Source of the DNA: Flaccisagitta enflata
Taxonomy: Eukaryota
Assembly: GCA_965153355.1 (NCBI GenBank)
Contig: OZ231126.1
Span: 9,114,001 to 9,178,000, forward strand
Length of the DNA: 64,000 nucleotides
Reading direction: 5' to 3'
Made by a program: the position numbers and the translations under genes. The stretch's first letter is position 1. Each line of letters starts with the position of its first letter. The notes beneath the pieces are model-generated. The model did not search any database. It saw only the letters and a list, made by a program, of their open reading frames with translations, and had not been told where the DNA came from. This document shows positions 2,316 to 63,918 of the stretch, piece after piece.

Positions 2316-3143
2316 GTGATCAGAAATAACAACAAGGCGCAAACGATATCACGATCAGAATCAATCAATCACAATCACCATTTGACAGAAATAACTCGAT
2401 ACAGTTACATTCGCTTGAATTGAGAGAGGTGAGTGCAGTACAGTTATTGTAGTAGAAAAGTCTTGAAGCTAAATAGGGCTCCCTTCTTTTCCAGTTGTTC
2501 AACCTTGATAGTGCCAAAATACCAAGCAGGCCACTAGTACGTCAAGGATGCAATATTGACCCGCCGAGAAAATGCTGGCAGTGACCATTTTCAGCTTGAA
2601 AGGGCTCTCATAGCCCTTTCCTGAGTAGCGCTCTTGAGCACGTTCCTGCAGAGAGCAGATCGAAGAAGCCTGGAAATCACGACTACCAACTTGGCGAATT
2701 TTCTTTATTTCTCATCATGAAGTATGTCGTTAACTCTAATAAACAAGTTTCCTTTTGCTTTCAAAAGAGCGAAGTCGAAAACTCATTAAAAATACTCTCA
2801 TAGCTAGTGTCAGTAGCACAAGTTGCTTAGCATTTGCTGAGTTTTGCTATATTCAAATGTTCTTGGGTCAATTTGAATAAAATACTTGGTTTACAACAAT
2901 ATGCAAATGAGGCTGTTTTTCCCTCGTTAATCTATCCTTGCACGCTAACCTTAATGCCAAGCGCCTTCAATATTTAGGTATGACCCACCAAAGCCAGTGC
3001 TATACAGCGATAATGTTGATGCTGCCGAGCGCGTTGTTCCAAGGAATACCACCTTGTATAATCTGTGATCCAATCGCCAGGGAGTTTAGGGATATCAGTG
3101 TAAGCCTTGCTGAGGGAATGTCTCGCTCTTTCCTCGAATCTAG

Positions 3144-6100
3144 GCTCATCATCTCGACAGCGGAAAAAGCGGTTACGAACCAACATTCCGTGGGGCGCGC
3201 CTGCGTTGCATCCAGAAGCCCTAGAAGTCGAAATTCCCATCATAGACTCCATCAATCCCAGACCCAACCAACTCCCACTCGCAGTCCCCGAGGATCTCAA
3301 GTACGAAATTATTTAGATTCTTTAGCATTTATGCAAATAAAGTATATGGACGTTGTCAACTTTCATGATTGTAATCGATCTCATTCTTCATCTTTCAGGC
3401 CCCGTTTGGAACGATTTCACGCGAGTCCACCCGTTTGGTGGATCGGTCAGTTGCTGAAGTTTTTACTCAAACCCAAACCGAAACTTTCCAAGCTCATCAA
3501 GGTACAAAAAGAGTCGTCTGAGGTCATTCTATCGATATTTCCTATCAAATATTGCCGAGCTGTTGATTAGTTTTGTCTCTCTCATTTATGATTGTCTATA
3601 GGATACCGGGGATCGTCTGGGCTTTTCCCATCCGGTTGTCGGGGTCCACGTTCGACGGACGGACAAAGTTGGCACGGAAGCCGCGTTCCACTCCATCGAG
3701 GAATATATGAGGCGCGTGGACGAGTGGTTCCAAAAGTATGAACTGCTTCATCCTCTTCCTCCGTCTTCTTCTGCCGGGAAAAGGAAAAGAAATGTGTTTC
3801 TCGCCACCGACGAACCGTTGCTGCTCGACGAAGCCAAAACTAAGTGAGTGTGAAGCTGGACAGCTCGTGAATCGGAGTGTATGGGACCTTTTATTTTGAT
3901 TGATAGATCTGTAGAGGTTTCTATTGTCAATGGTATGGTTGGAATCATGTAGACTAGATCATCTAGTCTAGATGATAAATCGAATTAGAATTTATTTCGG
4001 TAGCATCACATGGGTGTCAGAGGTGCCGATTCTATACGGCATGATAGCAATGCTACGCGAAAGACGAGCGTCAAAGGCGAAGGTGAAGGATGGAGCGGAT
4101 AAAACGAAAACAAGGCCGGATACACGGCCACCAGTTGCGGACGGGTGGGCAGAGGCGGATATGCGCGTTTTCTCACTTTTCGACTCGATCACCTCGACCG
4201 ACCGACCGACCGAACGACGGACGGACGGACAAAGCCTCTTATAGAGTTGCGTGTCCGCAACTAAAAAGGAACGAAGACAGAATGAAAGATAGGAATGAAG
4301 AAATAAATATTCTTGTGAATGTATTCATTTGACATAATCTACTGCAGCGCTCGCACATGTGGTTCTATGTTCTCGACTTTGGATGTATTCCTCATTTGCA
4401 TATTGCAGTTAGATTTCCATACGGGCCAATTTAGGTTTTTTCTTAACAAGAAGAGAATCTTTCTCAGCGTCAAATATCTCTTCATTCATTTGATCAAAGA
4501 AACTCGATATGACAATGCAAGCAAGCAAGTACAGTTAATTCAATTCTAAAATCTGTTTACTCAGAGACACGATTGCATTTAGTTTGATGGGATGATAATA
4601 TCGAAAAAACAGTAAGAAGAGGTTGATAATAATCACCTATTCAAACATCTTTGGAACGGGATTTACCAACTCCCGTGCTCTTTTTACCAGATAGACCTCA
4701 ATCTCGCTGAGACTCTTTGTCTCGTTGGGAAACGTTACAAGACAACAACATATCAAAGATTGGCTTATCTCCGTTATCTGATGGATGTTGCCATCATGTT
4801 GGGGCTGTATATATATCTTCTCACTTGCTCTCTTTAGATTTCCGGAGTACAACTTCATATCTGACAACAACATATCGAAGAGTGCTGGTCTGACTTCGCG
4901 CTACTCGGAGGAGTCTCTCCATGGCATCATTCTCGACATTCACTTTCTCGCCAACGCCGATTTTCTAGTCTGCACCTTTTCTTCGCAGGTCAGCGCGTCT
5001 GGGTTCTATATCTCATATTATATGTGTTAGGATCAGGCCTGTATATAATTGAGTTTACCCCCCTGTGGTTTTGGGAGATGGGGAAGGAAGTCAAAGGGGG
5101 GAAAAAAGAGAAAAGAAGAAAATTGTGGGAAAATATAACTTTTGGCAGAACTAATTCATAAAAACTGATTAGTAAAACACAATTTAACACTATTTAAACC
5201 ATAACTACACTGTTTTCATTGTCCTATGGGGAAGAAAATCATGATTTTAAAATGCGATGCGTCGCGTCGCGAGGAAGAAAATCAAAGGCAGGGGGGGGGG
5301 GGGAGAATCAAAAGCGACTCAATTATACCCCTCGTTAGGATACTTCTAATTTCTGTGTAGTTGTGGAAATTTTACCTTCTAGCAAAGGCGCTCATCTTGT
5401 CCTGTCTTAAGTCTAATCTCTACTCAATACACTCATCTGAAACCATCATAAAAATTTATAATTCCACGACCAGGATTTTACTCTGGCCCTGTAGAGTCAC
5501 CGTTAATTATCATAGGCAGATCGGCCAATTTTTTTGTTCAACATCAACTAGTTCAACAAATATTGACCTCACCAGGATTTTTAAATTTGATCCAAAAAGA
5601 TGCAATTATACTTATCATGCCCACTGATGCTGTTGCACTTTTTACTTGTGTCATAAGATTTTAAGAATTCATTCTCGTTTAGATTTTTGTTCCCCTGAAT
5701 AAAGTTAATGCATTTGAAACACAGTAATCATCCCAGGAATCGGGTCTTTCAATCGAAATGTATGCCTCTTATTGCATCATTACATGGATCATTACAATTA
5801 CATTATGGTATGTGGGCGTCGATTTCATAGGTTTGCCGGGTTGCTTACGAGTTGATGCAGTCTTTGCATCCGGATGCAAGTGAAAAATTCTCCTCACTGG
5901 ATGACATCTTTTACTTTGGCGGTCAAAATGCGCACAACGTTAGAGCCATCTACCCGCATCACCCTACCACCACCGACCAAATGGAGCTTCAGGTACATGA
6001 AACATTCATGAATGGTTTTGGAATATCAACTTATAGCAGTAGTTTACTCTTAGTTCGTTGCGCTTTAGTACTAAAATATAACGCATAATATGAAAAGACA

Positions 6101-9936: not shown

Positions 9937-10346
9937 ATCGCAGATCTGTAGAAGCTATTAACGGGAGTCTTTGTTTATAACTTTATATCGTTACTTGGTC
10001 CATAGATTGCGATTCCCCTTTTCTCTGTCCCTCGCTATTTCTTTCTCTATTCCGTGTATCTACTCGATCGTACTCACTTTTTGACATGGCAGGTTAGTGG
10101 GAATGGTGGAATGTAAAACTGGTAGCCAACCTACCCTTGATTGCGCAAAGAACAAATGAATAATACCCAAAGGAAACTTGAACGAATCTCGTGAGAATAA
10201 GAGGAAGATCTAAAGAGATTTCGCCTCCGTCTGCTCGCCTTGAAACCATCAGCCTACAAAAACAGTTGATTTCCGGTTGACGCGCATGGAGATTGTGTCA
10301 AGTACCGAACGAGTGTTAGAAACAATAACATAAACAACCCAAAAAA

Positions 10347-10808
10347 ATGAGTGAGTCGTCGTCATCGTCTTTGTTGACTCGCGGCGGAAGCGACTCTTTC
10401 ACTTGCAAAGTGTCTTCGGTGTTGAATCGAGACGCGAAGCAGTTTGGCAAGAAGCATTTATTCGACGGCGACGAAGAGACTTGTTGGAATTCGGATCAGG
10501 GATCGCCGCAGTTCGTCGTCGTCGCCTTCCACTCGCCCGTGACCGTCGATCGACTCGATATTCGATTTCAAGGCGGATTCGTCGGCAGAGAATGCTCGTT
10601 TCAAGTGTTGTCCGACGATGATGATGGATCATCCTCGGAGTTTGAGACTGTGAATCGATTTTATCCCGACGATTCTAATAAACTGCAGACGTTTCCCGTT
10701 GAGGGGGAGAACAACCGTCCCACGACCAAAGTGCGAATTTCCTTCGATTCCAGCACTGACTTTTTCGGCAGAATCACCATTTATTCCATGGAATTGTTTG
10801 GACGCTGA
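10347..10808 (+). CDS. NR2C2AP: Nuclear receptor 2C2-associated protein, single coding exon, 153 aa
   Basis: KVSSVLNRDAKQFGKKHLFDGDEETCWNSDQG, IRFQGGF, FYPDDSNKLQTFP and STDFFGRITIY match the NR2C2AP family; uninterrupted ATG..TGA ORF. Confidence 0.95.
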   Translation: MSESSSSSLLTRGGSDSFTCKVSSVLNRDAKQFGKKHLFDGDEETCWNSDQGSPQFVVVAFHSPVTVDRLDIRFQGGFVGRECSFQVLSDDDDGSSSEFETVNRFYPDDSNKLQTFPVEGENNRPTTKVRISFDSSTDFFGRITIYSMELFGR

Positions 10809-11205: not shown

Positions 11206-14200
11206 ATGGCCTCGACGCCATCGTCGACGGCGGCCGTGGCTGAGGAAGCGGCTGTCGGCGCCGCGTCCAAGCCAACTCCAACGCCGCGTCAGCGCGCCAA
11301 TCCCTCGCCCACCAACGTCGTCGGAGAAACCGACCAACGGCCCGCCAACTTGCCAGATTCCGAACCACGACAGCAACAACGTCTGCCTCAGCAACCGCCT
11401 CAGCAACCAAAACAGCAGCAGCAGCAGCAGCGTCCTGCCGCGAAAACGCGAACTTTACGACTGCGTGATCACGTTGGTTTCGACAGTCTTCCCGATCAAA
11501 TCGTCAGCAAAGCCATTTCTCAAGGATTCGCCTTCAATATTCTGTGCATCGGCGAGACCGGTTAGTCATTTCTCACATGAGGAAAATCCCATTCTCACTT
11601 AAGACAGTGGTCACTCCGATCAAGACCAAATATCAGCCCACGGAGGGCGAAGTTGATCTCACCAAGGGCAACTTAGGTCATCTCATCAAGGGCAAAGTAC
11701 ATCTCATCAAGGGCAAAGTACATCTCATCAAGGGCAAAGGTCATCTCACCAAGGGCAAAGGTCATCTCACCAAGGGCAAAGGTCATCTCACCAAGGGCAA
11801 AGGTCATCTCACCAAGGGCAAAGGTCATCTCACCAAGGGCAAAGGTCATCTCACCAAGGGCAAAGGTCATCTCACCAAGGGCAAAGGTCATCTCACCAAG
11901 GGCGAAGGTCATCTCAACAAGGGCAAATGTCATCTCAACAAGGGCAAATGTCATCTCATCAAGGGCAAATGGCATCTCATCAAGGGCAAATGTCATCTCA
12001 TCAAGGGCAAAGGTCATCTCATCAAGGGCAAAGGTCATCTCATCAAGGGCAAAGGTCATCTCATCAAGGGCAAAGGTCATCTCATCAAGGGCAAAGGTCA
12101 TCTCATCAAGGGCAAAGGTCATCTCATCAGGGGCAAAGGTCATCTCATCAAGGGCGAAGGTCATCTCATCAAGGGCAAAGGTCATCTCATCAAGGGCGAA
12201 TAACATTCTCATCATGAGCAATCATCATTCTCACCAAGGGCAAAGGTCACCTCACCAAGGGCAAAGGTCACCTCACCAAGGGCATAGCTTATTCTAACAT
12301 AGAACATAGGTCATACTCACAAAGGGCAAAGGTGATTTTCCTCCTCTTCCCCCTATTTCCCCTTCCTCCTCCTCCCCCCCTTCAACTCTCCACAGGCATC
12401 GGCAAGTCGACTTTGATGGAAACTCTATTCAACTCGTCATTCGGCGCATCTCCGGGTGATCACGACGCTGCCGGAGTACGTCTTCAGTCGTCGACGCATC
12501 GATTGAAGGAATCCAACGTGGATCTCAAGTTGACCGTCGTCGACTCGGTCGGTTTTGGGGATCAAGTCAACAAAGACGAGTCCTGGGCTCCCATCATCGA
12601 CTACATCGATGCCAAGTTCGAGGATTACTTGCAGGTTAGATGAAATGTCATGATGCGGGGGGAGTGGTCAAACGAGTATGAACGCCGTTGTGAGAAATTC
12701 TGTTGTGAATTGGATGATTTGTTGAGACGGATATGGACCACCAACGTTTGTCGACCTCTTTGACGAGCAAAACTAAATGACGCGCGCAAGCACTCTTCAG
12801 AGTCTCATCGCACATGGAGGTGCTTTTCGCGGACTGAATTTTAAATCGAAACTGAATGAATGAATGAATGAATGATTGATTGATTAATTGATTGAATGAA
12901 TGATTGATTGAATGAATGAATGATTGATTGATTAATTGAATGATTGATTGAATGATTGATTGAATGATTGATTGAATGATTGATTGAATGAATGATTGAT
13001 TGAATGAATGAATGATTGAGGTATGAATGAATGATTGATTGAAGGAACGAATGATTGAATAAATGATTGAATAAATGATTGAATAAATGATTGAATGAAT
13101 GATTGAATGAATGATTGAATGAATGAATGATTGATTGAATGAATGATTGATTGAATGAATGATTGAATGAATAAATGAATGATTGAATGAATAAATGAAT
13201 GATTGAATGAATGAATGATTGAATGAATGAATGAATGATTGAATGAATGAATGATTGAATGAATGATTGAATGAACATTAATGATTGTAATTGTAACGCA
13301 GGAAGAGCTGAAGATTCAGCGAAACCTGGTCGGGTTTGACGACTCTCGAATCCACGCTTGCCTTTACTTCATCTCACCAACGGGCCATTCCTTGCGAAGT
13401 CTCGACTTGCTGACGATGAAGCATCTCGACTCTCGCGTCAACGTCATTCCCGTCATCGGCAAAGCGGACATCATCGCCAAACAAGAGTTGAAGGCCTTTA
13501 AATCTAGGATCAAAGCCGAACTACTCAACAACGGCATCAAAGTCTATCAATTCCCCACCGGTAAGGAAGAAAACGATAAATTGTAACCTTTTTGAAACCT
13601 TTTTGAAAGAGCTATACTTATTACAAATATTACAAGTATTTTAATGTATGATTGCGCCGATGGTCGACTTGTTTTCGCCATTTGGCATGCTTACAGAATA
13701 CAGATATGTCTAGATCTCTCAAAACTTAATCTAACATCGTTTTTATTGATTGGCCATCGCATCATTTCTTTTGATGTTTGACAGACGACGAAGCTGTGGC
13801 GGCGTCCAATTCCAAGATGAACTCGGAAATTCCATTCGCCGTCATTGGCTCCAATGAAACCCTCGTCGTCAACAACAAAAAGGTGAATTGAGTGAATGGC
13901 TGAAAATTGGATGAATGGATGAATGAATGAATGAATGAATGGAACCCTCGACAATAACATAGAGGTGGATGAATGAATGAATGAATGAATGAATGAATGC
14001 TTGAATGGATCATTGAATGAATGGATGCCTGGTTTGATGAATGAAATCCACGTCATCGATGCCGATCGCGTGTCTCAAAATTTTTTCAATTTCCGATTGC
14101 TTTGTAGGTGAAAGTTCGTCAGTATCCGTGGGGAACGATTCAGATCGAGAACGAGGATCACTGCGACTTCGTGAAATTGCGCGAGATGTTAGTCAGGACC

Positions 14201-14425
14201 AACATGGAGGATTTAAGAGAGAAGACGCACGATCTGCATTACGAGACGTACAGGTAAATGTATTCGGTTTGTGATGGAATGTTTGTTTGGCTGCTGATGA
14301 TGGTGATGGTGATTATGAAGGTGTTATGTTGATGGTGACGATGATGATGATGATGATAATGATGATGATAATACTGATAATGATGATGATGAAGGTGATG
14401 AAGAAGGTGATGATGAAGGTGATGG

Positions 14426-14477
<52 letters not shown>

Positions 14478-16900
14478 GGTGAGGATGATGATGATGTTGA
14501 TGATGAAGGTGAGGATGTTGATGATGATGATGATGATGACGATGATGATGAAAGTGAAGAAGATGATGGTAATGATGATGATGATGAAAGTGAAGAAGAT
14601 GATGGTGATTGAGGTGATGACAACAATGAGGGTGACGATATTTTGCCTATCTTATACTTTGTACTTCGTATGTGATCAGACGGCGTCGATTGTTGGCCAT
14701 GGGTTTGGGAGACGAAAGCAAAGACGAAGACGGGAACCCGAATTTGTGCCAAACGGTGGAGAAGAAACGAGCAGAACATCTCCATCATCTCCAAGCCAAA
14801 GAAGATGAGATGAGACAACTATTTGTCCAAAGGTAATCAACTAGAATCGTAGGCCTATAAAAGACGAAAGTATTAGACAAAGTTGTCAGATGAATCTTTC
14901 ATCCGTTCAAAGCCATTGTCAATGGGTAATGATTTAACTTCTATTCCTCTTCCTCCTCTTTTGGGCAGCGGCCCCGGAGGGGCCGATGACCTATGATTCC
15001 ACATAGGGCAATTTTCTCCGGTGTCCGTCCGTCCGTCCGTCCGTCCCCCCCTCCCCCAAGCCTCAAATAAAGCCTCTCAGACCCCAAATCAGGCCTTTTC
15101 AACTCCAAATCAGACCTTTCTGACCCCAAATCAGGCTTCTCAGACCTCAAATCAGGCCTCCCAGAACCCAAATCAGACCTCCCAGACCCCAGATCAAGCT
15201 TCTCAGACCCCAAATTAGGCCTCTCAGATCCAAATCAGGCCCCAGACCCCATGTCAGGCTTTTCAGATCCCAAATTAGACCCCTCAGACCCAAATAAGGC
15301 CTTTCAGATCCCAAATCTAGCCTCTCAGACCCCAAACCTCGCCTCTTACACCCTAAATCAGACCTTTCAGAGCCAAAATCAGGCCTCTCAGCCCTCCAAA
15401 CCAGCCTCTCAAACCGGAGAAAATTGTCCTATGTGGAATCATAGGTCATCGGCCCCTCCGGGGCCGCTGCCCCTCTCACAATCTCATTCCCACATACACT
15501 AACTTAGGGGCATCGGGTACCGCTGACCATGTAACGCTTTTGCGACTATTTTCCTGTACATCCTCTCTCTCCTCCTCTTCCTCCTCTTCCCCTACCCCCT
15601 CCTTACCCTTCCACCTCCTTTTTCTCTTCCTCCTCCTTTGCCTTTCTTTCTCTTCCTTCTTTTCCTCTTCCTGTTTCTCCTCCACCCCCCTCCTTATCTC
15701 GTCCCTTTGACAGAGTGAAATCGAAAGAAGCCGAGCTGAAAGAATCTGAGAAGGAATTACACGTCAAGTTTGAAAAGTTAAAACGAGTTCACGCCGAGGA
15801 AAAGAAGAATTTGGAGGAGAGAAAACGAATGTTCGAGGAAGAGGTGAGGTTACACATTGCCGTACGACCATCAATGACTCATGAATTATCAGATAGTAGT
15901 ATTTAACATTTCATCAGTTAAGGCTTAAGTAGGCCTCGGCGGCGTCATTGATATGCGCGAATCCTTTTAGGCGCTGCATAAACGTTTGGAGAGACGCACC
16001 AGACAGATAGCCAACGAGATGGGCTGCCGTTATCCGGCAAGTTGTTCCTGCCCAGTTGGATGCTCCTGTACCGCTAGCTGTTTCTGTTCCAGTTGCTTTG
16101 GCCCGAAAGTCCTCGCCAAAGACAAAAAGAGCCGAAAAGATTGCTTTGTTAGGCTAGCTTTACCAGGAAAACTGTTAGCTTTCATTATCTCCTTCCCTCT
16201 CGCTGCGGTCATGGCTTACTCAACGTGGTTTTACTTCATGGTTTGGATGGCCTCCGCTCTGTTATAAATCTTTTAAAAAACTTGTGGCATGAAAGCCATA
16301 ATCTGTATTTTGGGGAGGGGGGTTACAAGCGTCATTAGTCAATTTGTATTATTACTAGGTTGTTGGAATACTTAGGGCTAAGCCGGATAATTATCTTATA
16401 TCTGCGTCAGTGTTTTTAACAATAACCGCGGTAAAAACGTCCAAAACGTAACGTTTTCGGCCTGTACATTGTGGTAGCTTAAAATACAACGTCATCATTT
16501 CTTTCTGCCTTCATAACAGTTTCAAAAATATTGATTGAATCGTTCTCATTGTTCCACTGTTCTATTCCCATCAAATTGCCGAAAAGCCAACTTGTTAACC
16601 GCACATGTTCACAATGAACTCATGTTCTCTTTCTCTTTTATTCTCTCGTTCGTATCTCAGTATCAAACCTTTCAGCAGCGCCGTGACGTTGATCGGGCTT
16701 CCGCTCTGCTGCGCAGTCAACAAGGCGGCGTCGGCGCCACTTTGGAGCCTCACATGGCATCCAACGCCAGTCTGGCGGGCGGCGGCGGCGTCCACGCTTC
16801 GGCTTCTTCGCTCTCCGTCGGAAAAACATTCTCTTCCACTCTCAAAAGATTCACTTCCAACAAAAACGTGGAAAAGTCTTCGCCGGAAATGCATCATTGA
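11206..16900 (+). CDS. Septin, SEPT6/8/10/11 group
   Basis: Exons 11206-11560, 12396-12634, 13302-13560, 13785-13882, 14108-14253, 14680-14832, 15714-15843, 16661-16900. [28 protein letters not shown] (G1), [43 protein letters not shown] and coiled coil [18 protein letters not shown] are diagnostic of the SEPT6 group. Confidence 0.95.
11655..12331. repeat. 21-bp tandem minisatellite filling septin intron 1
   Basis: (CATCTCAYCAAGGGCAAAGGT)n; explains the 7-aa periodic ORFs. Confidence 0.95.
12854..13275. repeat. (GAAT/GATT)n compound microsatellite
   Basis: Direct inspection; septin intron 2. Confidence 0.95.
14295..14640. repeat. (GAT)n-rich microsatellite
   Basis: Direct inspection; septin intron 5. 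Confidence 0.9.
14963..15472 (+). mobile_element. Inverted-repeat element with GTCC microsatellite and internal 21-bp tandem array
   Basis: 60-bp inverted repeats at 14963-15022 and 15413-15472 (1 mismatch); (GTCC)n; TCAGACCCCAAATCAGGCCTC-like units at ~15060-15410. Confidence 0.8.
15971..16267 (+). CDS. Candidate alternative terminal exon of the septin (Cys-rich segment plus hydrophobic C-terminal tail)
   Basis: Acceptor ATCCTTTTAG|GCG is phase 0, matching the exon-7 donor (GAAGAG|GT, 15843). Open for 98 codons: [46 protein letters not shown]...[31 protein letters not shown]. Confidence 0.55.
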   Translation, partial: ALHKRLERRTRQIANEMGCRYPASCSCPVGCSCTASCFCSSCFGPKVLAKDKKSRKDCFVRLALPGKLLAFIISFPLAAVMAYSTWFYFMVWMASALL

Positions 16901-17021
16901 CACACCGGAAGTGCATCTTGGAAACTGCTGTCGATTCTAAAACGATTCTCAAACTTCTGTCCCGAGACGCGTCTGCCTTCGATTCTCGCGGAATTTTTTA
17001 CCCAAGTGGGTCGTGGATATG

Positions 17022-17545
17022 CAGTAGATCTCGTCTAGACTTGAGATAACGGGGGCAAGCATTGTGGAAAAACAAATGAAGCGAAGGGGCTGATATTTGG
17101 AATAAAAATTAATAAAAAAATGATTTATTCCCTATGATGCTCGGTTGCCATGACAACATATTTCCATGTATTCTCGTTAAAATATCAATATTTTGAGAGA
17201 TTTTTTTAGGGAACATTGCTTAAAATCAAATTTGCGACAACTTTCCCACAATATCGTTCGTGTTACAACCCCTCGCAAGTGTAGAAACCGCTAAATGAGC
17301 GACATTCTTACACAACGTACTTTGGGAAAGTTATAGCAAGTTTTATTTAAAGCAATGTTCATTCAAAATATTTCTCAAAATGTTGATATTTTAGCATAAA
17401 TACATGGAAATGCATTTCCATGGCAACCAACATGAGCAATAAAGTATCGTTTTATTAGTCTTTATCCCAAATATGAATTCCCTGGTTTCATTAGTTTTCT
17501 TACAATGCTTGTCTCCGTTATCTCAAGTCTAGACGAAATCTACTG
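17022..17545. mobile_element. Foldback MITE, Tc1/mariner/pogo-type
   Basis: TIR CAGTAGATCTCGTCTAGACTTGAGATAACGG / CCGTTATCTCAAGTCTAGACGAAATCTACTG; arms pair over most of the length; TA at the right flank. Confidence 0.85.
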
Positions 17546-23712: not shown

Positions 23713-26700
23713 AGAAGATAGAAAGAGTCAGGAGAAGGGGGATAGGGGATTAGGATAAGAGAAAAAACCGAGTCACTCGATCGGTTTATTGTTGAATTCC
23801 GATTTCCGGTCATTGATAAAATGGTAACCTAGTTTAGGTTATCATCGGGTACCCTTCGACCGTTACGCTTCTGACGTCGATGCCCAATATATCATATAAC
23901 AAGGCCGGATACACGGCTACCCCAGCCGCGTGCGGATAGGCAGGTTGACCTCAAAACCCCCAAAAAGTAAAGTGTGACCGATGGACGGACCGACGGACCG
24001 ACAAAGCAGGATGTAGAGTCGCGTAGCACGCGACTAAAAAGTCATTCAATGTTTTAGGCTCACAATTGCAAATACTCGCCAATTTTCTTCCAGAATCTGA
24101 CCAGGCCAATGAAGGCGCAGATTATGGGGACGGCGGCGTTGAAGCCGGAAATGCCAACGATGGCGATGACGTTGATGGCGAAGACGCGGCGCCCGAGAGT
24201 CGAAATAAGGAAATCGAGGCGCAGCGACGTCAAACGGAATTCCGAGAATCCGAACTGAGCTTCTTGGCCGTCCGCACAACCTGCGCCAAACTACTTCCGG
24301 TTTGTATATAGCGGTCGAGTTCATCTCAAAGATATGTCTTCGCCTTTAGTTGTAACTCGTAGCTATTTTGAATTTATTTATGTGATTGAATTTATACAAA
24401 TGATTTGGATGACGCTGCGAATTGATGAAATTAGATGAATCCTATATAATGGATTATCGGGGGTTCGCGTCTCGGAAGACATTCGCGCAAATCTCATGTG
24501 GCATTTGCTTGCTTGTTTTGTCTCGCGCTATAGAAACTGGATACATATTTTTCAGGTTGACGATTGTGGCAATCCGGTGGAGTTTCCGTCGATGAGCGCT
24601 GATCCCGCCGCAACAACAACCACGTCTGCCATTCCGGCGTCTAACACGTCGGCGTCGACGGTGGCGGCGACGGCGGCTGCGGTGGCCTACGTGCCCGTGG
24701 ATCACGCTGGAAACGTCATCACGCTGACTTCCGGCGGAGGCGCATTTCGTCCGGAAATGCTCACCGAGGACGAACTGGATTACGGCATCGCGCCAGACTC
24801 AACCTCCACGCCGCTGAAACCACCCGAAGAAGAGTACCTCAGAGTAAGCAAAGAGGGAGGGAGCTGAAACTGAAAGTAAACGAGTGTTAGGTTATTTGTC
24901 GACCAAGAATTTTTGTTAAAGGTGAATTTCTGTGTTTGCAAATAAGGTAGGGTCAAAGAAATGTTACCTGGATTATGATTTGTAGGTGGATTTGGATTTC
25001 CATTACTCTTGGTTCCGTTGAAACGAGCATTGACTTTCTATGATAAACCTTCTTCAGGAGCTGTATTCCCTTCACGCGCAAACTCCGCATTCTGGCAAGT
25101 ACGACGGCGTCTACGAAGATGGCGTTCGTTTCTATCCGCATCAACCACAACAATATCAACAACCGCAGGATTACAAACATTTACAACAACAACACCACCA
25201 CCAACAGGAATATCAACAGTTACCACAACACGAATATCCGCTCCCGCAGGAATGTCAAGACAACACCGCCCTCGTCGCGCCACCGGCTTCAGTAATCACC
25301 TGCGGGACACCGACCACGATAAATGCCTTTTGTAGCGACAACATTCCTACGGCCGAAACATTCCCAGTCTCAGATTCTACTTCCGCTCAGTCGAGTGTCT
25401 TCGTCGACCCTTTATCCCTCCGCCAAATGCTCGTGAATAATTCGCCTCTCATTCACCATCAACAACAACTACCGCAGCAGCAGCAGCAGCATCGGCAGTC
25501 TCCGTTGCATCAACTGCATCATCAGCAACTGCAGCAACCGCATCATCGTCAATCCCCTCAAAATGTTCCTCACGGTTCCAATCCGTCCACTCCGACGCCT
25601 TTTCTGAATAAAGATTCTCCGACTGGTTTTGTCCCTCTTCGATCGACGCCCTCTTTGGACTATCCGTCGACGCCATTTCAGCCTCCCTTATCTTCCACTT
25701 CCGGCGCTCCCGTGCGCGTCGGCACGCTGCTTTCCTTCTCCGACGGCGTCGTTCGGGACTTCTCACCGGCGCCTCCTACTCTCTACGCCACTCTCGCGAC
25801 GACGACTTCGGCGGCCACGCCACTGAGCGCCAACGTCGGTCATTCGCCGACGGCGGCGTCGGCGGCGCCGTTGGCCTTGGCCGAGAGCTTCGCCGACATG
25901 GATCTTGACTCGTTACGCGGGACGCCGGTTCATCATCTATCATCTCCGTCGACGTTGGAGGCGGGGAACGGCGGCGTTTCCGGCCAGTATGGCGTCAAAC
26001 AACATCAACCGACGTCTACTTTGCGGAACGGAGTCGATCCTCTGTTTCGATCGTCCTCTTCCATCGTCACTTGCGTCGCGGCGCCACCAGCCGGACCCAC
26101 GTCGCCGATCTCCGTCACTTCCTCTTCCTACGGCGTTGTTTTGAGCGGCGCTGGCGTGGCCAATTCGCCGACGCCGATGTTCAACGCCGGCGCCGCTCTG
26201 CATTCGCCGGATACTCAGGCCCCCGATGACGACAGCATCGCCTCTTCCGTCCATTCTTTGGCATCCTCCTCCGATCACCATCTGCCCAACCGGCGTCTTT
26301 ATCATCCTCCTTCCTCTCGCCAATCGACGCCGCGAAATGGCATCGACGCCGGGATGCCCAACGGTCATCAAAGAGCGGCGCCTTCGAATGTCGGACGAAG
26401 AAGCGGCGTCACGCCTCCCAACAGCCTCGGCGTGGTGGCGGCGCCTCACGCTGGACGCCGCGTCAACGGGGATGACGGCGATCTGTATCGGGATCCAACG
26501 CTGCCGGAAGTCGTTGAATATCTGAAGAGCGACGACGACAAAATCAAAGCTAACGCGGGAGCTTATTTGCAGGTTGGAAAAAAACATATGCTCGCTGTGT
26601 CATCATAATCATAATCATTCTAGTCGGAAAAATCCGATTGAATTTGCTGGGTAACGGATATCCCGGCTTGGTGTGGTGTGTCTCGCTCGTCGGCTGGTGG

Positions 26701-35455: not shown

Positions 35456-36521
35456 ATGGCCGGTCATCAACCCATGGCTCATGGAATGCAAATGAGCGGC
35501 CCAAATCAGATCACTTCCTCAGGTTTGTCATTTCTAGTTCTACCTCTATCTGCAAGTTCTGTATGCTTTATCAGAGGGCGACGCGTTTTGTGTTCACGAC
35601 TGCAGATCTTGTTGCTTCGCAGTCATAGAAATTATTTTCCTACTCAGGCGTAACAACCGGCATGTCTCAAATGCCCGGTCAACCCATGACGACCCAGCAA
35701 ATCCCTGGTCAGCCAATGAGTGGTCAGCAAATGCCTGGCCAGCCAATGACTGGTCAGCAAATACCCGGCCAGCAAATACCCGGCCAGCAGATCCCAATGA
35801 CACAGCCGCAGGTAAATTTCTTTCAAACGCGTCACCAGGTGGTTGGATGCACGTCCCAGCGAGATGTCATCTCCACGCATTGGCATAACTGCAACTACAT
35901 CGGTTTCATCATTGTTTTCTCTTTTAGAAAATGATCCCTTCCCCTCAAGTTCAGCAGCAACAGCAACAACAGCAGCAACAGCAAATATCGGCTCATCCAG
36001 ACAATTCATCCATCGAGAAAATGAAAGCTTTGGTGCCCCACCTCAAAAAAGCTCTCGCGAATGTTATGCGGTAATAGAATACATCATTTATCTAACACGC
36101 TCCTCATATTTTACCCCATTCACTCATTAATTCATTCACTCATTAATTCATTCATTCATGTTTTCATTCATTCATGTTTTCATTCATTTATGTTTTCATT
36201 CATTCATGTTTTCATTCATTCATGTATTCATTCATTCATTCATTCATTCATTCATTCATTCATTCATTCATTCATTCAATCTCAGTTTGGCTGGTGAATC
36301 TCTCCGTCGCGATGACATATTCAGTCCGTCATCTTCTTCAGCGGCGCCTTCGGTTGAGAAGGCGTTGGAGGAGTTCTTCGCCATTTGCGACCAGTTGGAG
36401 ATGCACTTGGGTATCGCTCTTGAAGGGTTTAATCAAGTCATTCAGCACAAGAAGTACCTCAATCCAGGTGAGCTACGGGGGCGAGTGTGTGTGGGTGTGT
36501 TTGTTTTTTTGTTTGTTTGTG

Positions 36522-36600
<79 letters not shown>

Positions 36601-37486
36601 ATGTGTCTTTGTTTGTGTGTGTGTGTGTGTGTCCTTGTTTGTGTGTGTGTTCTTGTTTGTGTGTGTGTGTTCTTGTTTGTGTGCGTGTGTTCTTTTTTTT
36701 GTGCGCGTGTTCTTTTTTGTGTGCGTGTGTTTGTTTGTGTGTGTGTTCTTGTTTGTGTGTGTGTGTTCTTGTTCGTGTGTGTGTGTTCTTGTTTGTGTGT
36801 GTGTTCTTGTTTGTGTGTGTGTGTTCTTGTTTGTGTGTGTGTGTTCTTGTTTGTTTATGTGTGTTTGTTTATTTCTGCGAAAGCGAACTTTCGATATTTT
36901 ACGCAGAATGTATACGACATTCTTTCCCGCCTGGTCAAAACGCGGACGTGGTCCAACACTACAACGCCTTTTCCACCGTCATTCGATCTCAAGTCGCCCT
37001 CGCCTCCAGGTGAATGCGAGAAACAAAGAGTGTTCTGCCTTTTTACATGTTAGAGGGAAAATCTTAGCGTAGGGATTGTCGTCTTTCTTCATAATCTGCA
37101 AGGCCATATAGCTTATCTATTTCACTCTGATATAGTCTTTGATATTGTCTTTGATATTGTCTTATTGTTTAATACTGTCTGTTAAATCTGGAAAATGAAT
37201 CCATGTCCTTTTGGTATTTCGATTCAGTCTTCACGATGCGTTGATCAACTGCGCCGACCAGATAAGCACCGTCCCTTCTTCCTCCTCCTCCACTCCTGCT
37301 GGCGTCCCTTCCTCCTCCTCCTCCGCCGCAGCCGCCTCTCAATCTCATCGTTTCGTCCAGAATGGTCAGCCTCAACCGGGGACTCAGTTTTCCGCGGGTG
37401 GCCTGGCCGTCCCTCCGGCGACTACTGCCAACAACGCCCCGACCACTAATGCCACCCCAACCACGGCCACGAACACAACTTCATGA
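35456..37486 (+). CDS. MED29: Mediator subunit 29 (intersex-like)
   Basis: Exons 35456-35522, 35648-35811, 35928-36070, 36286-36467, 36907-37009, 37228-37486. KMKALVPHLKKAL..VEKALEEFFAICDQLEMHL..VIRSQV..LHDALINCADQI matches MED29; Q/M/P-rich N-terminus. Confidence 0.9.
36485..36870. repeat. (GT)n compound microsatellite
   Basis: Direct inspection; MED29 intron 4. Confidence 0.95.
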
Positions 37487-44500: not shown

Positions 44501-45620
44501 AGAAAAACCATCACTTGAGCTACTTCGTTGAAATGCGTAAGCAGGAAATGAGCCTCTTTCTGAGGGGCTCATTGCTCCCATCGTACTGTATGTCATGGAC
44601 TAAACGGTTTTCGACTCTAAGCAGTGAAATTATGCCATGTTCGACTGCAAGCAGCGAATTTAGTGTACCTACTGGTACTGAGCATCCAGACAAAGAGAAG
44701 GCGGGAACAAATTCACGCACAGTGGTGTACATGTGAAAAATGCGGCAGCTTGTGCTGAATTTTTCATGCTACGCGGCGGCATAGCAAAATCGGCACCTCT
44801 GCACCTCAAAATCTGCACCTCATTCAAACAGGCCTGTATATTGTTCTATATTCCCCCCCCTGGTGGGGGGGGGGGGAAATAATCAAAGGGTTTGGAGATG
44901 GGGGAAAAATGCAAGGGGGAAAAATAAGAATAAAAGAAAATTTGAGGAAAAAAAAACTTTTGGCAGTACCAAATCATTAAAAATGATTTGTAAAACACAA
45001 TTTAAACCTTAAAAACACTGTTTTATTGCTATATGGGGAAGAAAATCATAGATTTTGTAATGCGACGCGTTGTGTCGCGGGGAAGAAAATCAAAGGCAGG
45101 GGGGGGGAAACTAATCAAAGATCATAGAACTATATACATCCCTGCATTCAAAGGAAGTCGTTTCATACCACCAAGCCGGAAAGGCGGACAGGATATCCAA
45201 CTCTCCTAAATAAGGAGTAAACGCAGTTACTTGACGGAGGGACGAGACAAGACGAGACAAGACTATACGTTTGTTTCCATTATAATCGTTTACCATTCTT
45301 CGTTCTTCTTCCCTCTTTTCCAGGCGTTAATGGAAACCGCGGTTTCTCGCGCTTTACTGCCGATTCCTTGCGTGGCGATTCCTCCTTTGATCATGACGTT
45401 GTTGGAGCGCGTGCCGTCCTTCGCTCGTCGGCCTCGACTGCACATTCCCGTCCTCGGCGTCGTGTCCTGCGTCTCTTTCGGCTTAGGACTTCCGGTCGCC
45501 ATCGCGCTTTTCCCGCAATTCGCCGAAATCGCCGCTGAGAAATTAGAACCCGAATTGAGAGCCAAACTCAATCTGGATGACGAGGATCAGAGAGTCCTCG
45601 TCTACAACAAAGGATTGTGA
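38206..45620 (+). CDS. SFXN5: Sideroflexin-5 (mitochondrial inner-membrane transporter)
   Basis: Exons 38206-38463, 39391-39611, 40052-40295, 45324-45620. [73 protein letters not shown] and terminal YNKGL; the residue pattern is SFXN5-like. Confidence 0.93.
39248..39332 (+). pseudogene. Partial duplicate of the SFXN5 exon-2 acceptor and first 25 codons
   Basis: [28 protein letters not shown] versus true [28 protein letters not shown], 133 bp upstream. Confidence 0.85.
39676..39823 (-). mobile_element. HINE-like element
   Basis: Closely similar to the 4109 copy (AGTTGCG subTIR type). Confidence 0.8.
40532..40836 (-). mobile_element. hAT-type MITE
   Basis: CAGGGGTGTATA / TATACAGGCCTG ends; perfect 8-bp TSD TAAGCGAC. 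Confidence 0.88.
41131..41322 (-). mobile_element. HINE-like element
   Basis: subTIR AGTCGCGTGC pairs with the terminal GCACGCGACT hairpin; GACC repeats. Confidence 0.82.
41367..41605. mobile_element. hAT-type MITE containing (CT)n
   Basis: TAGCGCCGTATGG / CCATACGGCCCTG ends; 8-bp TSD GGTACCGC/GGTATCGC. Confidence 0.7.
42300..42477. mobile_element. Tc1/mariner-type MITE
   Basis: CAGTTAAACCCCGCAATAAC / GTTATAGCGGGGTTCAACTG; TA TSD. Confidence 0.8.
42703..42896 (-). mobile_element. HINE-like element
   Basis: Diverged copy of the 41131 type. Confidence 0.75.
43579..43777 (+). mobile_element. HINE-like element
   Basis: TTTTAGTCGCCTGCACGCGACT ... GTCG repeats ... TATCCGGCCTTGTT. Confidence 0.78.
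44829..45144 (+). mobile_element. hAT-type MITE
   Basis: CAGGCCTGTATA / TATACATCCCTG; perfect 8-bp TSD CATTCAAA. Confidence 0.9.

Positions 45621-47240: not shown

Positions 47241-63918
<16,678 letters not shown>

Follow-up and report, generated by a model that had tools for sequence, protein, structure and literature searches.

An alternative terminal coding segment spliced to a SEPT6-like septin gene of Flaccisagitta enflata may encode a cysteine-rich, tail-anchored isoform

The way in which septins stay attached to membranes is not settled, and transmembrane isoforms have been proposed only recently. Septin isoforms with a transmembrane domain (TMD), including a C-terminal one in SEPT10, have been described by Perry et al. 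(PMC10690161), with at least one copy of a TMD-septin predicted in 447 of 2320 species and most of the approximately 700 predicted proteins still awaiting validation. In the tarsier Carlito syrichta, the C-terminal TMD of SEPT10 directs GFP and human SEPT10 to the endoplasmic reticulum (ER) and mitochondria, and the tail by itself is enough to bring GFP to the ER and to the outer membrane of mitochondria; in C. elegans, the isoform UNC-61a has a functional N-terminal TMD that arises from an alternative start (PMC10690161). Putative transmembrane domains are also carried by non-opisthokont septins of Groups 6A and 7 (Delic et al., PMC11238149), a survey of 254 septins in which the animal and fungal Group 1 had 0% and transmembrane domains occurred mainly in non-opisthokont groups, and which notes reported amphipathic helices for human SEPT6 and UNC-61. 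Here we analyse a septin gene in a 64,000-nucleotide (nt) stretch of Flaccisagitta enflata DNA (contig OZ231126.1; hereafter, the window), the last intron of which contains a 98-codon segment (15971–16267) ending in a hydrophobic run.

At this locus, an anchor would be gained through an alternative terminal coding segment that replaces the usual septin tail and brings a cysteine cluster along with it. The splice that joins the segment to septin exon 7 is seen in RNA, on thin evidence. On balance, we lean towards the segment being a real alternative 3′-terminal coding segment of a SEPT6-group septin, giving a tail-anchored, Cys-rich isoform.

The septin gene and its alternative splice

A tblastn search with P0002, a protein of 511 residues from a Joint Genome Institute (JGI) record, combined with a boundary search, gives an eight-exon septin gene on the + strand with seven canonical introns, all of which are GT..AG (Table 1). 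The open reading frames (ORFs) of exons 2 and 3 match the septin-type GTP-binding domain PF00735 in Pfam. Among the 120 matches listed for exon 3, the named ones are vertebrate SEPT6-like, SEPT8, SEPT10, SEPT11 and SEPT14 proteins (64–70% identity) and the Mytilus ‘SEPT6_8_11’ (66% identity), and the Lys/Glu-rich exon 7 aligns to the coiled-coil region of SEPT6-group relatives. These matches identify the gene as a SEPT6-group septin, as an earlier note made from the sequence alone had proposed.

Exon 7 ends in phase 0 at the donor GAAGAG/gtgagg after 15843. From the corresponding FEEE junction, P0002 (87% identical over exon 3) passes into a homologue of 16661–16900, as do P0123, P0126 and P0127 from a more distant relative. 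Because these mRNA-derived proteins of two related species end with its homologue, the canonical last exon is real, and because the canonical relatives run on from the same FEEE junction, the two tails compete for one exon-7 donor. Protein lengths from the gene model are 539 residues for the canonical product and 558 for the alternative isoform.

RNA evidence for the second ending comes from marine samples. The runs found were four marine metatranscriptomes (X1–X4, two studies; 5–8% of 121 sampled words, shares that are uninformative about habitat) and one raw-read run, and the region 15700–17150 was compared with the contigs of runs X1, X2 and X3 and with the raw reads of run X5. In X1, a 205-nt contig with a mean word depth of 3.14 follows the window from 15712 to 15841 and then directly from 15969 to 16029, with no intervening letters. 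The joint skips 127 nt with 61 letters on its shorter side, and becomes a GT..AG intron once the cut is moved by +2 nt, that is, 15843/15971, which is the junction that the earlier note had singled out for a check. A single letter of the 191 in the X1 contig differs from the window, synonymously and within exon 7. The X2 contig connects the end of exon 6 with exon 7 and goes no further than the exon-7 end. The X3 contig (210 nt) covers 16139–16347, taking in the hydrophobic end of the ORF plus 80 nt past its stop, with 6 of 209 letters differing. None of the RNA records reaches all the way from the G domain into the tail; X2 connects exons 6 and 7, X1 connects exon 7 to the tail, and the frame of the gene model is open throughout.

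The acceptor used (ccttttag/GCG before 15971) lies behind a TTGAT at 15948–15952, which we take to be a branch-point-like match. As first noticed from the letters alone, and as the ORF list and the gene model agree, the frame that it opens is in phase with the exon-7 donor and runs, stop to stop, through 15971–16267 (98 residues). The translation has the further features that had been pointed out: eight cysteines within 24 residues with three CxC pairs, the linker KDKKSRKD and 31 uncharged residues to the stop. The segment is also non-repetitive, as had been stated: intron 7 matches only itself within the window, and Tandem Repeats Finder finds no tandem repeat in 15900–16400 at score 30. Its GC content is 0.495, compared with 0.417 and 0.369 in the adjoining intron parts.

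A tail-anchored protein is recognized by a single hydrophobic helix within about its last 30–40 residues and by the lack of an N-terminal signal sequence. Here the hydrophobic run occupies residues 68–98 of the 98, ending at the stop, with a mean Kyte–Doolittle hydropathy of 1.77 over the last 31 residues and 1.93 for the best 19-mer, a value that passes the Kyte–Doolittle rule of thumb, and the exon-1 translation is Pro/Gln/Ala-rich with a start that is not hydrophobic. In a single-sequence AlphaFold2 model, residues 66–97 form a helix with block values of the predicted local distance difference test (pLDDT) of 82–91. The Cys region is unstructured in the model (pLDDT below 50 at residues 28–33 and 39–63), the first half of the cluster falling in blocks with a mean pLDDT of 47–57.

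Table 1. Exons of the septin gene and parts of the alternative terminal segment, in window positions
Feature	Positions	Strand	Evidence
Septin exon 1 (start codon, Pro/Gln-rich N-terminal extension, G-domain start)	11206..11560	+	tblastn with P0002; GT..AG gene model
Septin exon 2 (G domain)	12396..12634	+	PF00735 E 3.4e-18; 86% identity to P0002; boundary search
Septin exon 3 (G domain)	13302..13560	+	PF00735 E 1.7e-31; tblastn; boundary search
Septin exon 4	13785..13882	+	tblastn with P0002; boundary search
Septin exon 5 (septin unique element region)	14108..14253	+	49/49 residues identical to P0002; boundary search
Septin exon 6 (C-terminal extension starts)	14680..14832	+	tblastn; boundary search; X2 contig joins exon-6 3′ end to exon 7
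Septin exon 7 (Lys/Glu-rich coiled-coil part)	15714..15843	+	tblastn; gene model; RNA-library contigs X1 and X2
Intron removed with the alternative acceptor (127 nt, GT..AG)	15844..15970	+	Joint in one X1 contig (61 letters on shorter side)
Alternative terminal coding segment (98 codons + TAA)	15971..16267	+	ORF; in phase with exon 7; RNA contigs X1 and X3
Residues 1–16, predicted helix continuing the exon-7 coiled coil	15971..16018	+	AlphaFold2 single-sequence helix 2–17, block pLDDT 57–59 (low confidence)
Cysteine cluster (residues 19–42)	16025..16096	+	8 Cys in 24 residues; CxC pairs CSC, CSC, CFC
Polybasic linker KDKKSRKD (residues 50–57), then Cys58	16118..16144	+	Sequence
C-terminal 31 uncharged, mostly hydrophobic residues (68–98), candidate tail-anchor transmembrane helix	16172..16264	+	Hydropathy; model helix
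Post-stop sequence, at least 80 nt, 3′ untranslated region or retained	16268..16347	+	Colinear in X3 RNA-library contig
Canonical last coding exon (79 codons + TGA)	16661..16900	+	78–81% identity to tails of P0002 and P0121

Two side observations concern the same gene and its RNA. Compared with P0002, its closest relative, the protein has an insertion of 13 residues in the Pro/Gln-rich N-terminal extension encoded by exon 1 (11269–11562). About 120 nt past the septin stop, 17022–17080 is matched by dozens of unrelated metatranscriptome contigs (summed depth up to 1042 for X1 and up to 90 for X3), the ends of which are loose on either side, and looks like a widespread repeat or conserved element rather than a signal of septin mRNA.

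Alternatives, relatives and genomic surroundings

Two features of the segment are common in this DNA. An ORF of at least 98 residues lies wholly inside 247 of 632 sampled + strand windows of 817 nt, a length that is uninformative here because the window is repeat-rich, and a C-terminal hydropathy equal to that of the tail is reached by 26 of the 431 ORFs of at least 60 residues, so that it is not rare. At least eight cysteines within 24 residues occur in 10 of the 431 ORFs; of the nine others, at least six are translations of (CV)n dinucleotide repeats and one is a Cys run, and a non-repetitive Cys cluster is thus unusual among them. What is decisive beyond chance, unlike ORF length or a hydrophobic C terminus, is the junction 15843/15971 in an RNA-library contig. 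Septin introns 1, 2, 5 and 6 are themselves packed with short tandem repeats (11469–12297, 12648–13368 on the − strand, 14239–14818 and 15060–15420), and the repeat-filled introns yield very long frames on both strands with His-rich, GKGHLIK-type and SFIH-type translations.

A serious rival, which we regard as possible but unlikely, is that the splice is real but idle: a young, lineage-specific exonization or a weak cryptic acceptor, the product of which is not usefully made or is degraded. The commonness of such ORF lengths and hydrophobic C termini suits this explanation, and several further observations weigh against a useful isoform. The RNA support is thin, amounting to one contig at a depth of about 3 in one of three testable contig runs, and its source is an environmental metatranscriptome, not a run of the named organism; X5, the raw-read run of ‘organism A’, placed 0 reads from approximately 6% of the run and provides no test. 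The acceptor before 15971 has a short, weak pyrimidine tract. The candidate transmembrane helix, which includes Pro, Ser, Thr and Tyr, is only moderately hydrophobic, with a marginal position-independent sum of +1.8 to +2.05 kcal/mol on the Hessa scale. Neither AATAAA nor ATTAAA occurs from 16265 to 16660, where AATACA (16483) and AATGAA (16613) are the only variants present, and a GTRAG donor is likewise missing from this interval. The segment may form a terminal exon that relies on an unusual poly(A) signal, or the last exon may be lengthened to the canonical poly(A) region, with an identical protein in either case. Of the alternative 3′ exons that the earlier note had envisaged, the splice to exon 7 and the canonical exon are borne out, whereas a separate last exon, for which this interval offers neither a canonical poly(A) signal nor a GTRAG donor, is not.

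The tail is also without a detectable relative. Pfam gives 0 families at E up to 10 for both the 98-residue form and an 82-residue form, and the PDB sequences 0 chains at E up to 10; a word-index search in longer proteins gives 82 candidates, none at E ≤ 0.01; phmmer against 1.84 billion representatives gives 0 matches; of 597 pattern matches in JGI metagenome contigs, 0 were confirmed; and the ESM Atlas gives no usable match. All of these blanks count against the isoform, but they are weak evidence, because the word-index search, when run with the canonical tail as a matched control, recovered no more than 2 proteins from 394 candidates and the lineage is hardly sampled. Among the 593 pattern matches listed for the exon-7 peptide in JGI contigs, at least one locus was found (L001); it represents a SEPT6-like mRNA that is more distant and ends in the ordinary Lys-rich way, and was set aside as uninformative.

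The X3 variant bears on the idle splice in both directions. Four of its five coding differences are non-synonymous (I73V, F75V, A79V and F89C, with P76 silent), so there is no sign of purifying selection on residue identity, a further point against the isoform; a single difference falls in the 83 nt after the first base of the stop codon. Against an idle sequence, all four replacements stay hydrophobic and the frame stays open. The pattern is as compatible with a fast-evolving membrane helix as it is with a neutral sequence.

A similarly divided record comes from P0121 (twin P0122), a naive ORF call of 250 residues on a genomic contig of the P0002 species, which reads exon 7 out of frame, an intron 7 of approximately 424 nt and the last exon, with the septin stop (TGA) read as Trp. 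In its intron-7 frame, a hydrophobic stretch aligns to the tail with 9 of 29 residues identical. This match, weak but collinear and located in a relative's orthologous intron, speaks against an idle splice; its BLASTP E value of 0.22 and the absence of the Cys cluster in the one visible frame count against the isoform, and a local score equal to its 37 is also reached by 8 of 369 window ORFs (60–140 residues) and by 6 of 431 C-terminal 41-mers. The alignment is no more than a hint; the ORF conservation in related species that the earlier note had looked to is at best weakly suggested by it, and the protein and metagenome searches gave no relative. We considered the open 141-codon intron frame of P0121 as a sign of coding constraint and dropped it, because 248 of 2542 sampled 151-codon frames are likewise free of TAA and TAG (1262 of 5384 given an open proximal part) and because its caller evidently read TGA as Trp. 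P0121 and P0122 illustrate how eukaryotic contigs in metagenome assemblies give rise to misleading ‘proteins’.

Other points tell against an idle splice. The alternative junction is the sole assembled continuation of exon 7 in X1, and X1–X3 hold no contig of the canonical last exon, although coverage holes prove nothing. The end of the ORF is covered in a second run (X3), the step up in GC content suits coding sequence and the non-repetitive eight-Cys cluster is of an unusual kind.

An artefact, in which the joint is mis-assembled or comes from another organism or a paralogue, or the X3 contig is DNA or unspliced pre-mRNA, is improbable. The joint is present in one low-depth contig only, DNA can occur in RNA libraries and the six differences in X3 perhaps indicate another population or species. 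Yet the joint lies exactly on a GT..AG pair, in phase, at a site predicted from sequence alone, which makes an assembly or contamination artefact unlikely; 190 of the 191 X1 letters equal the window; and just three letters are shared (ambiguous) at the joint, not enough to give a false join when words are 31 letters long, which excludes false collapse on a common 31-letter word. The intron parts 15847–15944 and 16386–16973 have zero depth in every run, contrary to expectation for genomic DNA or pre-mRNA, and such a source is therefore disfavoured.

Most improbable is an independent gene nested in intron 7, with its own promoter and an 82-residue product starting at ATG 16019 (MGC…) that would combine a Cys-rich head with a C-terminal anchor: the ATG does open the Cys cluster, and the X3 contig, covering the 3′ part only, leaves the RNA start undefined, but the X1 contig crosses this ATG from exon 7 through the splice to 16029 and so assigns the region to the septin transcript rather than to the independent small gene that the earlier note had named as a possible refutation, no contig begins in 15844–15970, the 82-residue form has no family or relative (Pfam, 0) and its Pro at position 6 would not fit the N-myristoylation pattern of PROSITE.

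A second septin with a divergent ending appeared among the more distant relatives. P0009 (JGI, transcript-derived) departs from the canonical path right after FEEE into a 45-residue tail with a strongly hydrophobic 19-mer (hydropathy 2.02), whereas the canonical ending is retained in three members of its cluster; this is a weak hint in favour of the alternative isoform. As a homologue it was rejected, with no meaningful alignment to the alternative tail (score 23) or to the P0121 intron (score 21); its ending could be another hydrophobic septin tail of the alternative kind, or a chimera produced in assembly. Its 90% cluster also holds the 57-residue P0124, P0125 and P0128, which are basic in their N-terminal half, have a hydrophobic helix at the C terminus and share nothing obvious with septin, a possible clustering oddity or contig link.

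Around the septin gene, the window is ordinary animal nuclear DNA, with FUT8 exons, an F5/8-type-C ORF, Med29, a sideroflexin exon and an RRM protein. Upstream, four ORF pieces at 2911–6085 (+) match consecutive parts of the Pfam family FUT8_N_cat (profile 313–499; E 3.6e-07 to 2.6e-27) and represent 3′ exons of a FUT8 (alpha-1,6-fucosyltransferase) gene. At 10329–10805 (+), a 159-residue ORF with weak matches to F5/8 type C, NedA-like and Sad1/UNC-like galactose-binding folds (E 2e-07 to 1.5e-06) shares the strand of the septin gene and ends approximately 400 nt ahead of its start codon. Downstream lie the longest ORF in the window (524 residues, 25034–26605 (+)), which has no Pfam family at E 0.001, a Med29 match (36131–37069 (+); E 1.3e-08), a sideroflexin C-terminal exon (45210–45617 (+); E 1.6e-25) and two RRM_1-bearing ORFs (51172–53990 (−); E 1.6e-14 and 4e-11).

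A proposed splice choice between two septin tails

If the segment is indeed an alternative ending of the septin, the exon-7 donor would serve two proteins. Joined to the acceptor before 16661, it would yield the 539-residue septin with a soluble tail, of which residues 52–69 form an amphipathic-helix-like 18-mer (hydrophobic moment 0.41, net charge +4). Joined to the acceptor before 15971, it would yield the 558-residue isoform, composed of the coiled coil, a cytosolic eight-Cys cluster, a polybasic stretch and a C-terminal hydrophobic helix.

A protein that lacks a signal peptide and has a single, C-terminal hydrophobic helix is inserted into membranes post-translationally, with its N-terminal bulk left in the cytosol. 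Because the 558-residue isoform has no signal peptide and its sole hydrophobic helix lies in the last 31 residues, we infer that it would be inserted in this way as a tail-anchored protein, with the bulk of the septin left cytosolic and riveted to the membrane. The eight clustered cysteines, and Cys58 approximately 10 residues before the helix, would then face the cytosol beside the bilayer, flanked by the polybasic stretch. Most likely, they would be S-acylation sites that strengthen or sort the anchor, with metal binding as the second choice. As a SEPT6-position subunit, the isoform would supply every septin hexamer or octamer with two fixed anchors.

The splice choice may thereby swap a reversible membrane sensor, the amphipathic helix, for a fixed anchor. 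We offer this swap as an idea rather than a result, because exon 7, which is common to both proteins, reaches a similar hydrophobic moment (0.46). A more far-reaching version, which we hold to be doubtful, is that the SEPT6-position septin of this lineage carries a splice switch between a reversible amphipathic-helix tail and a permanent anchor with its eight cysteines multiply S-acylated or metal-loaded, the tails of P0121 and P0009 being the same device evolving fast. If so, cells could choose by splicing between sliding and riveted septin filaments, and hidden intronic anchor exons would explain part of the patchy distribution of TMD-septins (Perry et al.). No annotated or called protein with this tail is present in the collections searched. 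The locus shows that isoforms of this kind can lie concealed in introns and escape annotation, which bears on the ‘sporadic’ phylogenetic distribution of TMD-septins.

Comparison with known transmembrane septins and membrane anchors

Transmembrane septin isoforms are in print (PMC10690161), as the earlier note had stated, although its example, UNC-61a, has its TMD at the N terminus and the closer precedent is tarsier SEPT10. Like the isoform proposed here, tarsier SEPT10 is a SEPT6-group septin with a C-terminal hydrophobic helix and an otherwise cytosolic protein, and its human orthologue lacks the helix. The two differ, in a comparison made by description only, in that the tarsier TMD lies within the last 106 residues, which open with an ordinary SEPT10 tail motif, whereas here the whole canonical last exon is replaced. 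UNC-61a resembles the present case as an isoform-specific TMD in a SEPT6-like subunit, the isoforms differing in a terminal extension only, and its TMD is functionally important, for vulval integrity; it differs in that an upstream start, not 3′ splicing, supplies an N-terminal TMD, and no Cys cluster is described for it in the available text of that paper, where the words ‘cysteine’ and ‘palmitoyl’ have 0 occurrences. Our limited literature search, which did not cover the list of predicted TMD-septins in the supplements of PMC10690161, found no septin that combines a tail anchor with a cysteine cluster. The septins of Groups 6A and 7 (PMC11238149) likewise unite a septin G domain with a predicted transmembrane helix, but are algal and ciliate proteins for which the available text does not indicate an alternative exon as the source.

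Outside the septins, MAVS with its Cys508 (PMC11348129) is alike in its lone C-terminal helix and in the position of its cytosolic cysteines near the membrane. Anchors of this type have one or few such cysteines; here there would be eight in 24 residues approximately 26 residues upstream of the helix and one approximately 10 residues upstream, with acylation predicted. SNAREs are further tail-anchored proteins with acylated cysteines near the anchor. Metallothioneins have a repeated CxC spacing, which the cluster resembles in that spacing only, with 0 Pfam families and 0 PDB chains found for the tail at E up to 10. The Pfam result, for the 98-residue and 82-residue forms alike, also fails to place the tail in CYSTM (PF12734). 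The likeness to CYSTM/CYSPD (PMC10840359), a Cys-rich, C-terminal, membrane-associated module, is accordingly one of resemblance rather than membership, and the CYSTM cysteines lie within the C-terminal motif, whereas those of the present tail lie outside its hydrophobic helix. Judged from its sequence, the locus would thus be a further transmembrane septin, one with no sequence relative for its tail, that is set apart from those described by its cysteine cluster, a possibly new feature, and by the replacement of its last exon.

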